A stretch of DNA of 64,000 nucleotides from Escherichia coli (GCF_030013595.1 NZ_CP122768.1); one strand, 5' to 3'; counted from the stretch's first letter, positions 32,443-36,840 are shown. Notes: generated by a model from the sequence alone, not told the origin. Numbers and translations: made by a program.

Positions 32443-33613
32443 TTCTGATTTAGACGATTTGGCAGCAGAACTTGCCGAGTTTGCACCACCTGAGAAGAAA
32501 AAAGGACGTCCAGCCAGCGAGGAACGCATCATAGCCGGTTTTGAAGAGATCCAGCGCTTTACTGAGCAACATGGGCGTGTCCCGCAACATGGCGAAGAGC
32601 GTGATATCTTCGAGCGTCTCTATGCAGTGCGGCTCGACCGCCTACGCAGTCTCCCAGACTGCCGTGCCTTGCTAGAGCCACTGGATCATCAGGGCTTATT
32701 AGCTGGAGGGGGCGATGTAGCGGAGTCTGCGGACGAAATTATCGATATCGATAACTTGGCTGCCGAACTGGCGGATGTTTCCAGCGAGGACGATATCACG
32801 GTCTTGCGTCATGTTCGTGCTAGCACCGAAAAGCGCGTTGTACAAGGAGTTGCGGATCGCAAGCCGTGCGAGGATTTTGATGCGTTCAAACCACTATTTG
32901 AGCAGGTACGCAATGATCTAAGTTCAGGGTTAAGAGTGACCCGACCTTTTGGGCAGTATGCAACGATTGAAGTGGGTCATTGGTTTATCCTGGATGGTCA
33001 AACGGCTTATGTGTCTGAGGAAGGTGAAGAGTTCGATTCTCCACAGGGGAAGAAAGATGCTCGGCTGCGTGTCATTTATTCGAATGGTACAGAAAGCAAC
33101 CTACTTCGGCTGTCATTGGTTCGTGCTTTGTATAAAGACGAAACAGCGCGTCGAATTACCGATCCAGACATGGGGCCTTTATTCAGCGATGCTCTAGAAG
33201 AGAGCGATCTAGAAAGTGGCACTATTTATGTGTTGCGTTCGCTATCTGATAACCCTTATGTAGCTGAACATCGTGATGTCATTCACAAGATTGGAGTGAC
33301 TGGCGGCAAAGTAGAGGCGCGTATTGCCAATGCGGAACACGATTCCACCTATCTGTTAGCGAAAGTCGAGGTGGTAGCTTCATACAAGCTTGCAGGCATC
33401 AACAGCACCCGGATGGAAAACCTGTTTCACAGGTTGTTTGCACCCGCAAGGCTTAACATTACCATTAACGACCGTTTCGGCCATCCAGTGCAGCCCGAGG
33501 AATGGTTTCTCGTTCCGTTATTCGTTATCGATGAGGCTGTTGCACGTATTAAGGATGGTAGCATCATTGGGTATGTTTATGACCCCATGTCTGCGAAACT
33601 GGTGAAGGCATAG
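32435..33613 (+). CDS. Protein with C-terminal T5orf172 / GIY-YIG-superfamily domain
   Basis: 392 aa; start ATG 32435 overlaps the helicase stop by 8 nt and has GGAGGG SD; C-terminus GTIYVLRS...HKIGVTGGKVEARI...ENLFHRLF...EEWFLVP matches the T5orf172/GIY-YIG pattern; N-terminus has two acidic repeats DLDDLAAELAEF and DIDNLAAELADV. Confidence 0.7.
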   Translation: MNNSDLDDLAAELAEFAPPEKKKGRPASEERIIAGFEEIQRFTEQHGRVPQHGEERDIFERLYAVRLDRLRSLPDCRALLEPLDHQGLLAGGGDVAESADEIIDIDNLAAELADVSSEDDITVLRHVRASTEKRVVQGVADRKPCEDFDAFKPLFEQVRNDLSSGLRVTRPFGQYATIEVGHWFILDGQTAYVSEEGEEFDSPQGKKDARLRVIYSNGTESNLLRLSLVRALYKDETARRITDPDMGPLFSDALEESDLESGTIYVLRSLSDNPYVAEHRDVIHKIGVTGGKVEARIANAEHDSTYLLAKVEVVASYKLAGINSTRMENLFHRLFAPARLNITINDRFGHPVQPEEWFLVPLFVIDEAVARIKDGSIIGYVYDPMSAKLVKA

Positions 33614-33650
33614 TGAAGTGACACACTGAATTTGGCCACCTGTTCTGAGG
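33614..33650 (+). repeat. IS3-family (IS911-like) terminal inverted-repeat-like sequence abutting the stop codon of the T5orf172 gene
   Basis: TGAAGTGACACACTGAATTTGGCCACC starts one base after the TAG stop; shares TGAAGTG...GGCCACC termini with the IR at 33838-33864. Confidence 0.5.
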
Positions 33651-33837
33651 TGAGTATATCACCTCAGAACAGCACAGGAATAAAAGATACTGATTTGAAT
33701 GTGCCTATACTTTGTGATGTGAGGATCAATGAATAGTAACCTGATCAAGATATGTTACCGTGGTGAGACTGGTGAAAGTGGTGAAAGTGATCTAAGAACA
33801 TTGATACTTGGTGAGATTCTATATATCTCACTATGAA

Positions 33838-34262
33838 GTGGTCAACAAAAACTGGCCACCGAGTTAGAGTTTTTCCAGTATCGATTTTCCGATTCGTTTG
33901 GGGGTAACCCACCGTTATATTCGTGCGGTCTTAGTGCGCTATAATATCCAACGATATAGTCCGGCGTGAGCTGCCTCGCTGAAGCTTACGTAACCCACCA
34001 CCGGCATCCATTCGTTCTTCAGACTCCTGAAGAAGCGTTCCATTGGGCTGTTATCCCAGCAGTTTCCGCGCCGGCTCATACTCTGCCTGATCTGGTATCG
34101 CCACAATAACTGCTGGAACTGCCTGCTCGTATAATGACTGCCCTGTCGCTGTGGAACATCACCCCACCGGGCTTACCACGGGTTTCCTATGCCATTTCCA
34201 GCGCTTTCATGGTGAGCCTGCTGTCCGGCGAGAACGACATGGCCCAGCCCACTGGTTTTCTG
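33838..34262 (-). mobile_element. IS3-family (IS911-like) right-end fragment with orfB remnant
   Basis: Minus-strand translation gives [20 protein letters not shown] and, with one frameshift, [29 protein letters not shown], ending inside terminal repeat TGAAGTGGTCAACAAAAACTGGCCACC; frameshifted and 5'-truncated. Confidence 0.65.
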
Positions 34263-34426
34263 TAAGCGTCGTCTGAGTACCGTCTGGTCCCGAATCCAGG
34301 ATCCTGTAACTTAAGCACCCACTTATTTTGCAGGTGGACACCTCATGCGCACCAAAGAACGACTCCCCCGGAAACGCTATTCTCCTGAATTTAAAATGGA
34401 ACTGGTCAGGCTGGCCCTTGAACAAG

Positions 34427-36191
34427 ATATCACGAACGGTGCAATAGTGGTTCTTCCGCAACTTGGGTGGAAGAAAATGGATGAAACTTTCTGGTGAACA
34501 AGGATCTAAGCTGTTTTAAGTTATGGGCAACGCAATGCACTCTCTTAAGACACTTCTACAGTTACCTTGCGGATGGCGATGCAGTCGACAAATTATTAGC
34601 TCTGACGGTATCACCCTCCATCTCCACGGAAAACGCAAAACAGCACAATGTCCTGAATGCTCTAAGCGTAGCGACTCTGTTCATAGTTCTCGTCGGCGCC
34701 GGATACAGCATCTACCCTGCTCCGGGCAGACGCTATGGCTTGTATTTTCCGTCCGCCACTGGTACTGCCGTAACCCGGCTTGTTCACGTAAAATTTTTGC
34801 CGAGTCGCTTGCTCCCTTCGCCGGTTCACACCAGCAGTCTTCACAGGCGTTACAAAATTTACAACGTCAACTGGGATTAATAGCTGGAGGTGAGGCTGGA
34901 AAACGGGCTGCAACGGCAGCGGGTCTCCGTTGCAGTGCTGATACTCTTCTTCGCAGGGTTATCAATACCCCGGAGACGAAACAGTCAGGCGCGCCTCATG
35001 TCGGTATTGATGAGTGGGCGTGGCATCGGGGCCACTGCTGCGGTATGTTAATAGTCAATCTTGATACTCACCGTCCCCTCGTCCTGCTTCCCGGCCGTGA
35101 TCAGCGTACGCTGGCGACCTGGTTCAGAAAATATCCGGAAATACAGGTTGTCTCGCGTGATCGCAGTGGAGTCTATGCGACAGCAGCACGTGAAGGTGCA
35201 CCTCAGGCCAGACAGGTGGCCGATCGATGGCACCTGCTAAAAAATATTGGTGATGAGCCTGAACGAATGATGTACAGACATATACCTCTGATACGTCTTG
35301 TTGCCAGTGAGTTGTCACCAAAGAAATCACCTGAGCCAGAACTGTCTGTGCCTGCAGCATCGCTCCGTCGTCCGGAACGCCTTAAACAGCAAACCCGCAA
35401 AAAACGGCATCAGCGTTGGACAGAGGTTATGGCCCTGCATAACAAGGGATGTAGTTTCAGGGAAATATCCCGTATTACAGGCCTGTCGCGTGTGACAGTC
35501 AGTCGCTGAGTACGTTCAGGAACATTCCCTGAAATGTCAACCCGACCTCCAAAGCGAGGGCTTTTGGACCCATGGAGGGAGTGGTTAAAAGAGCAACGAG
35601 AAAGTGGGAATTATAACGCCAGCCGGATAATGGCGGGAAATGGTGGTCCGGGGGTTTACAGGCAGTGAAACCATTGTCAGGGATACTGTTGCCAAATGGC
35701 GTAAAGGCTGGATCCCACCGGTTACTACTGCCGTCAGACTTCCTTCAGTGTCCCGGGTAAGGCGCTGGTTGATGCCCTGGAGAATAATCAGGGATGAAGA
35801 AAATTATGCTTCCCGATTTATTAGTCTGATGTGTGAAAAAGAACCGGAGCTGAAAATAGCGCAGCAACTGGTACTCGAGTTCTACCGTATTCTGAAAACC
35901 CAAAATAAATCACAGCTTAGCAGCTGGTTCACTCGAGTCCACGAAAGCGGTTCAGCAGAACTTCGGCGCGTGGCTGCGGGGATGGAAGCTGATGCTGCGG
36001 CTATATGTGAGGCAATCAGCAGTCGCTGGAGTAATGGTGTTGTCGAAGGTCATGTAAATCGCCTGAAGATGTTGAAACGCCAGATGTATGGTCGAGCCGG
36101 ATTTGAACTGCTCAGGCAGAGGGTCATGAGTCCACTGGCATGAAAATCTCCACCCAAGTTGCGGAAGAACCACTTTTCATCCGTCGTTGAC
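34427..36191 (+). mobile_element. ISL3-family insertion sequence nested in IS66 tnpA
   Basis: Perfect 23 bp terminal inverted repeats ggttcttccgcaacttgggtgga (34449-34471) and tccacccaagttgcggaagaacc (36149-36171), extending imperfectly outward; removing 34427-36196 restores the IS66 tnpA frame. Confidence 0.75.
34523..36143 (+). pseudogene. ISL3-family transposase, disrupted by an in-frame stop and a frameshift
   Basis: Two ORFs (34523-35509 and 35640-36143); N-terminal zinc-finger-like HLHGKRKTAQCPECS and C-terminal WSNGVVEGHVNRLKMLKRQMYGRAGFELLRQRV typical of ISL3 transposases; TGA at 35507-35509 followed by a frame change. Confidence 0.75.
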
Positions 36192-36498
36192 ACAAGAGGG
36201 CAGTATCGCTGCTCTGGCCCGTCAACATGACGTCAACGATAATCTGCTCTTTAAATGGATAAGGCTCTAGCAACGTGAAGGGCGGGCGGGTCTGTCGACC
36301 CCGAAAAAATGCATCGTCGCTTCCTGCCCTGATACCCGTGCAACTTCAGGCGGAGCCTTCTCTCCCGGCATTCGAACCACCATCCTGTTCACCTACCACT
36401 GCCTGCCACATAAAATGTCGGGGCGGAGAAATAACACTGACCTCTCCCTCAGTTGAGCTTATGAGCACTGTCCTGCGCGAACTGATGCGGGGGTCTGT

Positions 36499-36840
36499 AT
36501 GATAAATCTTCCCGCAGGCACAAAAATCTGGCTGGTTGCCGGTATCACCGATATGCGCAACGGCTTCAATGGTCTCGCCGCAAAGGTGCAGACAGCGTTG
36601 AAAGATGACCCGATGTCCGGCCACGTCTTCATCTTCCGGGGCCGCAGCGGCAGTCAGGTCAAACTGCTGTGGTCCACCGGCGACGGACTGTGCCTGCTGA
36701 CCAAAAGGCTGGAGCGTGGCCGCTTCGCCTGGCCGTCGACCCGCGATGGCAAAGTGTTCCTGACGCCGGCGCAGCTGGCGATGCTGATGGAAGGTATCGA
36801 CTGGCGACAGCCAAAGCGGTTACTGACGTCCCTGACATGT
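36499..36840 (+). CDS. tnpB: IS66-family TnpB (orf2)
   Basis: MINLPAGTKIWLVAGITDMRNGFNGLAAKVQTALKDDPMSGHVFIFRGRSGSQVKLLW...GIDWRQPKR matches IS66 orf2; ATGA overlap with preceding tnpA frame; 3' end merges into the truncation junction. Confidence 0.7.

Follow-up and report, generated by a model that had tools for sequence, protein, structure and literature searches.

The closest published relative of the genes considered here is the DnmA-YeeB-YeeC cluster, which comprises three genes, is horizontally mobile and is found in defence islands (PMC9973331). A cassette that shares these properties, with the same three domain types (methyltransferase, SF2 helicase and T5orf172) in the same order, lies in a 64,000-nt stretch of Escherichia coli DNA (NZ_CP122768.1; hereafter the window), and its last gene is followed directly by the interval under study, positions 33614-36846. 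The interval holds the remains of four insertion sequences (IS), all of known families, namely IS911 of the IS3 family (two ends from different elements), the IS66 family, and ISEc38 of the ISL3 family, and it ends against a truncated gene for a TOTE archaeo-eukaryotic primase (AEP) and SF2 helicase. We conclude, with a probability of roughly 0.9, that the interval is non-functional debris of successive IS insertions and one deletion in the cargo region of an island at thrW. The identities, boundaries, nesting and truncations of the pieces are read from alignments, and from them we infer the order of events and a single deletion that joined IS66 tnpB to the primase gene.

A nest of defunct insertion sequences

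Genome searches covered 5,426 complete E. coli genomes, with PLSDB used for plasmids and the GTDB representative genomes for wider reach. Over positions 23845-48900 the window is colinear with the corresponding locus of strain 2022H047 (L001) at 97.6-99.3% identity, except for one deletion. The gene order in L001 is Ag43, a GTPase gene, the region of interest, YagK/YfjJ, YfjI, tRNA-Thr, proA, proB and phoE, and from this order we read the region as the cargo part of a CP4-like integrative island at tRNA-Thr (thrW). The comparison loci include a tRNA-Ser island (L002), strains CFS3292 (L003) and JNE070796 (L007), a complete annotated IS911 copy (L006), an uninterrupted E. coli IS66-family element (L008), two Cupriavidus loci (L017, L018), two Klebsiella IncHI1B plasmids (L026, L027), and two E. 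coli loci with a primase-helicase gene (L029, strain Ecol_AZ146, where it is intact, and L030).

The first base after the nuclease stop codon (TAG, 33611-33613) begins the sequence TGAAGTGACACACTGAATTTGGCCACC at 33614, which opens a solo left-end relic of IS911-like, IS3-family type (33614-33678, plus strand). The relic is 65 bp long, holds no open reading frame (ORF), and is 88% identical to nt 1-65 of the L006 IS911 (pairwise E value 1e-16; 3e-11 against 28 Gb). It thus resembles IS911 in its left terminal repeat (IRL) tip and in that identity, but it amounts to 5% of a 1.25-kb IS and is too divergent to be IS911 proper. An intact parent IS was found neither in the E. coli genomes, where the best non-self match is IS911 at 88%, nor in PLSDB, and two exact relic patterns gave 0 matches in the GTDB representative genomes. 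A relic longer than 65 bp was hinted at by a match to R27 (82% over 78 bp) and was rejected, as the R27 sequence is another truncated IS911 end with a chance extension.

A second IS911-type end lies at 33834-34261 on the minus strand. This stretch is the reverse complement of the last 434 nt of the L006 IS911 at 97.2% identity, and contains the right terminal repeat (IRR), with the tip TGAAGTGGTCAAC..., and the C-terminal ~141 codons of orfB. Two deletions, of 5 bp and 1 bp, put orfB out of frame, such that tblastn recovers OrfB residues ~155-299 across two frames, and RefSeq annotation (PGAP) labels the homologous stretch a frameshifted partial DDE transposase. Identity is 97.2-97.5% to copies annotated 'IS3-like element IS911 family transposase', compared to ~92-93% for ISEc52. 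At 34% of a 1.25-kb IS, the fragment is not an element. Both fragments carry a 5'-TG...CA-3' tip matching IRL or IRR, each starting TGAAGTG. The orfA/orfB arrangement with a programmed -1 frameshift and a DDE (rve) transposase was not found, with orfA, orfAB and the frameshift site all absent from the interval, and no 3-bp target-site duplication brackets a complete IS911, as each fragment retains one end.

The IS66-family remnant is in two parts, both on the plus strand. The left part (34262-34427; 98.8% identical to L008 positions 4000-4166) has a complete IRL and the 5' end of tnpA (ATG at 34345), and the second part (36187-36846; 97.9% identical to L008 4157-4812) carries the rest of tnpA, overlapped by tnpB. 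Because the complete IRL tip, GTAAGCG at 34262, abuts IS911 nt 814/815, we read this junction as a complete IS66 left end inserted into IS911 orfB. The tnpB ORF (36499-36864) matches PF05717 (TnpB_IS66) at 2e-38, with its C-terminus altered by a 1-bp deletion. The element ends at the tnpB stop (36846), and tnpC and the right terminal repeat are missing. In short, a left repeat, a tnpA split by another IS, and tnpB remain at 98% identity to L008, making up the first ~830 bp of an element whose L008 copy is roughly 2.4 kb as estimated from the sequence. We regard the remnant as a member of the family by descent, not as a complete element; the closest IS66 copies carry a PGAP family name only.

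The two parts of tnpA are separated by an ISEc38-like, ISL3-family element (34428-36186, plus strand), a 1759-bp block with a 1723-bp core at 34449-36171. This block accounts for 1759 of the 3230 bases (54%) of the interval, is absent from L008, and interrupts a tnpA that is otherwise contiguous. It is bounded by ~44-bp imperfect inverted repeats (I1) and flanked by a 5-bp direct repeat, CAAGA (34423-34427 and 36187-36191). Its transposase matches the Pfam families Zn_ribbon_ISL3 and DDE_Tnp_ISL3, and an intact 539-residue copy in L001 matches NCBIfam transpos_ISL3 at 7.7e-108. The block is 96-97% identical to plasmid copies annotated ISEc38, so it has the zinc ribbon, DDE domain, both ends and flanking repeat of that family. 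It differs in that the transposase gene (34523-36143) is dead, with a nonsense change (TGG>TGA at 35509) and a +1 frameshift at 35629 relative to L001, where the gene is intact in a 99.3%-identical locus. The moved block also extends 21 bp per side beyond the GGTTCTTCC...GGAAGAACC core. That these ends might be a palindromic target site was ruled out: the outer 21 bp per side are missing from the uninterrupted IS66 tnpA, and therefore came with the IS.

Two side observations concern ISEc38 itself. The outer 21 bp of its ends (34428-34448 and 36172-36186 in the window; also L009, L022, L023 and L024) fall into two distinguishable types, combined as A...B' in the window and L022, as B...A' at a common chromosomal copy beside a ggt fragment, and as B...B' in L023. 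The pattern would fit an inversion of the core between the inner repeats, or a swap of ends through conversion. Separately, all 14 differences between the window and L001 transposase genes fall within 287 bp (35509-35795) of the 1.6-kb gene. This clustering suggests a gene-conversion patch from another ISEc38 copy, which would have brought in the stop codon and the frameshift together.

The sequence between the two IS911-type ends (33679-33833, plus strand) does not derive from an IS; a BRO-N domain gene has left its 5' stub here. The stub consists of ~50 bp of upstream region and codons 1-35 (ATG at 33729), and has 76% nucleotide identity to the start and the preceding 47 bp of the gene for WP_223277103.1 in JNE070796, a protein that matches Pfam Bro-N. 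The 35-residue translation of 33729-33833 is 80-87% identical to residues 2-33 of that protein. We searched the window and L001-L005 for the rest of the gene by tblastn, and found nothing past the first 33-35 residues; the IS911 tip is thus read as having cut the BRO-N gene after codon 35.

The stub contains a 9-bp tandem duplication (GGTGAAAGT twice, 33771-33788) that adds the three residues GES and is absent from the JNE070796 homologue. In some E. coli genomes the match is 9 bp shorter (632 compared to 641 bp), which would fit a missing 33771-33788 duplication.

At its other end the interval abuts the TOTE primase-helicase pseudogene (36847-37732, minus strand), which retains the first ~301-304 of 788 codons and matches PF22548 (AEP-TOTE) at 4e-100. 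Matches to homologues run up to residue 301, and homology to the intact gene of Ecol_AZ146 ends at codon ~304. That intact gene, located in the same thrW backbone, encodes 788 residues that include ResIII and Helicase_C domains. The window copy shares with such genes a complete AEP-TOTE domain and an upstream gene for a 187-residue YagK/YfjJ (Gp2-like) protein, as at intact E. coli loci, but it differs in having lost about 485 codons (~302-788), the entire helicase half, so the AEP-helicase fusion is absent. In addition, the N-terminal ~25 residues are unmatched; PGAP flags a frameshift and annotates the gene as a pseudogene. The name TOTE rests on Pfam and PGAP, and a full-text literature search on TOTE found nothing. 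Microhomology at the 36846/36847 junction is at most 1-2 bp, which points to an illegitimate deletion as the origin of the IS66-primase junction.

As a further observation on this gene, the 187-residue YagK/YfjJ gene lies directly upstream of the AEP-TOTE gene as a conserved pair in E. coli (36847-38451 in the window; L029, L030). A gene for a protein of 187 residues also precedes the AEP gene in Cupriavidus (L017, L018), where the comparison with YagK/YfjJ is by size and position. The pairing would fit an island replication module, instead of or besides a 'conflict system'.

Much of this layout had been proposed in an initial annotation of the window, and several of its claims stand: an IS911-like terminal repeat directly after the nuclease stop codon, two tips pointing the same way (TGAAGTG on the plus strand), an IS66-family remnant, and a truncated primase gene. 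Its IS3-family assignment, to be dropped if neither terminal repeat matched that family, holds, as both match annotated IS911. The second end with its orfB remnant is real, with boundaries at 33834-34261 and not the proposed 33838-34262. The inventory of the pile-up, which does lie at an island cargo hotspot, was right as to the IS3-family ends, IS66 and the primase, but it overlooked the ISL3 element that fills 34428-36186 and the BRO-N stub.

Proposed order of events and distribution among genomes

The following order would account for the nesting. An IS911-like element would first have landed directly after the stop codon of the DnmA-YeeB-YeeC-type cassette, and would later have been cut to 65 bp of its left end and joined to the ~50 bp upstream of the BRO-N gene. 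A genuine IS911 would then have inserted, inverted, after BRO-N codon 35, followed by an IS66-family element into IS911 orfB and an ISEc38-like element into IS66 tnpA. An illegitimate deletion may next have brought the tnpB stop of IS66 up against codon ~301 of the primase-helicase gene. It would have removed tnpC and the right end of IS66, two-thirds of IS911 on its left side, the remainder of BRO-N and the helicase half of the primase gene. Finally, point mutations would have inactivated the ISEc38 transposase in the window lineage. As no intact transposase remains, and neither IS911 nor IS66 retains both of its ends, nothing in the interval is predicted to transpose on its own.

The relic and BRO-N state probably predates the rest, because it is common to Klebsiella IncHI1B plasmids. 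In L026 and L027, the same cassette is followed by the relic flush after the same stop codon, and then by the BRO-N start. E. coli and these plasmids are 98-99% identical along the final ~670 bp that end at window position 33749, the point at which the plasmids carry an ISKpn26 insertion, and the relic itself is 98.9% identical between E. coli islands and the two plasmids. A tblastn search with the BRO-N protein gave no match at all in L026 or L027. In PLSDB, matches of at least 95% to the relic are confined to six Klebsiella plasmid records, all over the same 87-bp stretch, and the two records inspected have the same cassette context. We therefore place the relic, on this comparison, as older than the rest of the stack and as travelling with the cassette; the initial annotation had counted it as part of one local stack.

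Within E. coli, the arrangement of nuclease end, relic, stub and IS911 tip is common to 60 complete genomes. The block 33834-36900 occurs in 46, in at least two island contexts: the thrW island in L001, and the tRNA-Ser island in L002, which lies beside a gene cluster for glycosyltransferases and O-antigen export (RfbB). In all but two of these 46 carriers (44), another sequence flanks the IS911 tip on its left, and the whole interval is shared by only 2 genomes. Strain CFS3292 (L003, 9643-14376) has a near-complete IS911 that was invaded by a group II intron (ltrA) and IS30 and lacks the IS66 insertion. L004 has recombined at ISEc38 with the common copy beside the ggt fragment, and L005 has IS100 inside ISEc38. 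From these variants (L003, L004 and L005) we read the IS copies as recombination breakpoints that reshuffle island cargo. In L003 a partial IS66 tnpC follows the IS911, giving a different stack on the same foundation.

Several points weigh against this account of the interval, or at least against its simplest form. The order of events cannot be proven from the present data. The near-complete IS911 without IS66 in L003 may represent what the locus looked like originally, or it may have been restored afterwards through recombination with some other IS911 copy, and its flanks (CTA and GAC) do not form a 3-bp direct repeat, which implies extra rearrangements beyond the simple scenario. The 44 genomes with another left flank, of the L002 type, make the IS911 tip itself a recombination breakpoint. 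Lastly, the IS names were taken from RefSeq and PLSDB annotation of 96-98% identical copies.

The adjacent cassette and alternative readings

The last gene of the cassette (32435-33613, plus strand) encodes a YeeC-like GIY-YIG/T5orf172 nuclease of 392 residues with matches to Pfam T5orf172 and MUG113. Its homologues in Enterobacter, Pantoea, Pseudomonas, Alcaligenes and other genera have 388-401 residues at 100% query coverage, and the reading frame stops at the same position in Enterobacter and Pantoea. By this comparison we judge the nuclease complete and its C-terminus native. In Enterobacter and Pantoea the cassette comprises exactly three genes, for an MmeI-like methylase, a 681-residue helicase and a 392-residue T5orf172 nuclease, and the island genes beyond it are unrelated; homology to the window at the DNA level ends at the stop codon or at most 7 bp from it, and no BRO-N gene is present after the cassette. 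The three-gene cassette also occurs on Klebsiella plasmids with the same synteny.

These comparisons bear on the suggestion, made in the initial annotation, that the pile-up may have destroyed further partners of the operon. On such a reading, the BRO-N gene would have been a fourth component. A BRO-N start does follow the cassette in both E. coli and the Klebsiella plasmids, and JNE070796 has a full BRO-N gene at the corresponding place in the island, where it follows another methyltransferase-helicase pair beside GTPase and Ag43 genes. A gene that adjoins two unrelated cargo sets is, however, better explained as a flanking backbone gene. With the nuclease at full length, three-gene cassettes without BRO-N in other genera, and a published cluster of three genes (PMC9973331), no lost partner need be assumed, and we consider it improbable that one existed. 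As read from these comparisons, the pile-up cost the cassette no operon partner; what was lost is the greater part of the BRO-N gene, along with the helicase-encoding half of the TOTE primase-helicase gene.

The cassette was also described initially as intact, which it is not. The window's cassette matches MmeI_Mtase, MmeI_TRD and MmeI_C in the first gene, DEAD and ResIII in the second, and T5orf172 and MUG113 in the third, so the gene set and order are of DnmA-YeeB-YeeC type. The first gene, for an MmeI-like type IIL methyltransferase (28256-30400, plus strand, outside the interval), is truncated at its 5' end. Compared to L001, L003, L004 and L005, a 2291-bp deletion with its junction at 28372-28375 has taken out IS66 debris lying upstream, along with codons 1-253 of a 928-codon gene. 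A small ORF from the upstream side (WP_000282126.1) now contributes 40 codons, which run in frame into codon 254 onward of the MmeI-like gene. The full-length Enterobacter protein (921 residues) carries MmeI_N and MmeI_hel, neither of which was found by Pfam in the window's first gene, whereas the methyltransferase, TRD and C-terminal domains are kept. In agreement, the PADLOC profile match covers positions 268-910 of 912. The junction was found in 0 of the 5,426 complete E. coli genomes. The deletion thus appears private to the window, and the operon is judged to be truncated at the end opposite the pile-up; the fusion product could be an orphan methyltransferase. The PADLOC call for the cassette is limited to 'type IIG RM' for the first gene, with no match for the nuclease and only a weak PbeA match (5.3e-05) for the helicase, and NCBIfam matched neither of these two.

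A side observation, at 28616-30582, concerns the same gene. The Klebsiella plasmid cassettes (L026, L027) are 91-99% identical to the window from ~30583 on, and 72-76% identical over parts of the MmeI-like gene. Positions 29121-30083 cannot be aligned to either plasmid, and because this segment covers most of MmeI_TRD (about 29500-30110), it suggests a swap of recognition specificity between the window and Klebsiella cassettes.

A second alternative is co-option of the relic: it would form the 3' end of the operon, with its hairpin serving as a terminator or mRNA stabiliser, and would accompany the cassette in its passage between E. coli islands and Klebsiella plasmids. This would account for a relic kept flush to the stop codon in two genera at 98.9% identity. 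The relic does contain a perfect 14-bp hairpin (33640-33653/33659-33672), and the fold, computed for 101 nt, has a free energy of -36 kcal/mol (z = -5.4). Where the relic departs from IS911, it does so mostly in the hairpin region, and the changes located in the arms give the stem full complementarity; cassettes in other genera share no common 3' flank. However, there is no U-run after the stem and the terminator scan makes no call there. A similar but less perfect hairpin at the same position in IS911 means that the structure was probably inherited from the parent IS, and solo IS911 left ends, such as the one in R27, also occur outside any context of this kind. Recent common descent accounts for the conservation, as coding and non-coding sequence within the last ~670 bp are equally 97-99% identical to the Klebsiella plasmids. 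We therefore give co-option little credence.

The idea that the two IS3-type ends act together as a mobile unit (a composite, a one-ended transposon or an active IRR-IRL junction) draws on there being two genuine IS911-type terminal repeats 220 bp apart, but it is effectively refuted by their geometry, since the tips point the same way and neither bracket a segment nor stand head to head, and it is further opposed by the ends coming from different elements (88% and 97% identity to IS911), by the lack of any orfA or orfAB in the interval, and by the fact that ISKpn26, not IS911, follows the relic in the Klebsiella plasmids.

Regulatory scans

An Rfam search of the interval gave no match, and counts of promoter and terminator sites within it are not above those of shuffled sequence. 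One promoter-like site was noted on the minus strand (33845-33816; TTGACC, an 18-nt spacer and TAGAAT), as a consensus match only, with 10 of 12 positions matching. Its -35 box lies in the IS911 IRR and its -10 box in the BRO-N stub, and it faces outward, antisense toward the nuclease gene.

Implications for island annotation

Debris of IS insertions and one deletion, as we read the interval, involves known families and no new biology, and RefSeq (PGAP) already labels the same pieces as pseudogenes or partial genes in the near-identical L001 locus. Annotations should describe the region as debris of nested IS911, IS66-family and ISEc38 elements together with a BRO-N stub, not as hypothetical proteins or a possible extension of the operon. 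Neither neighbouring system is intact in the window strain: the MmeI-like gene lacks its N-terminal domains, and the primase-helicase gene lacks its helicase. The shared junctions, with 60 genomes on the left, 46 for the right-hand block, and the relic in Klebsiella, may serve as markers for the IS-mediated rebuilding of island cargo.

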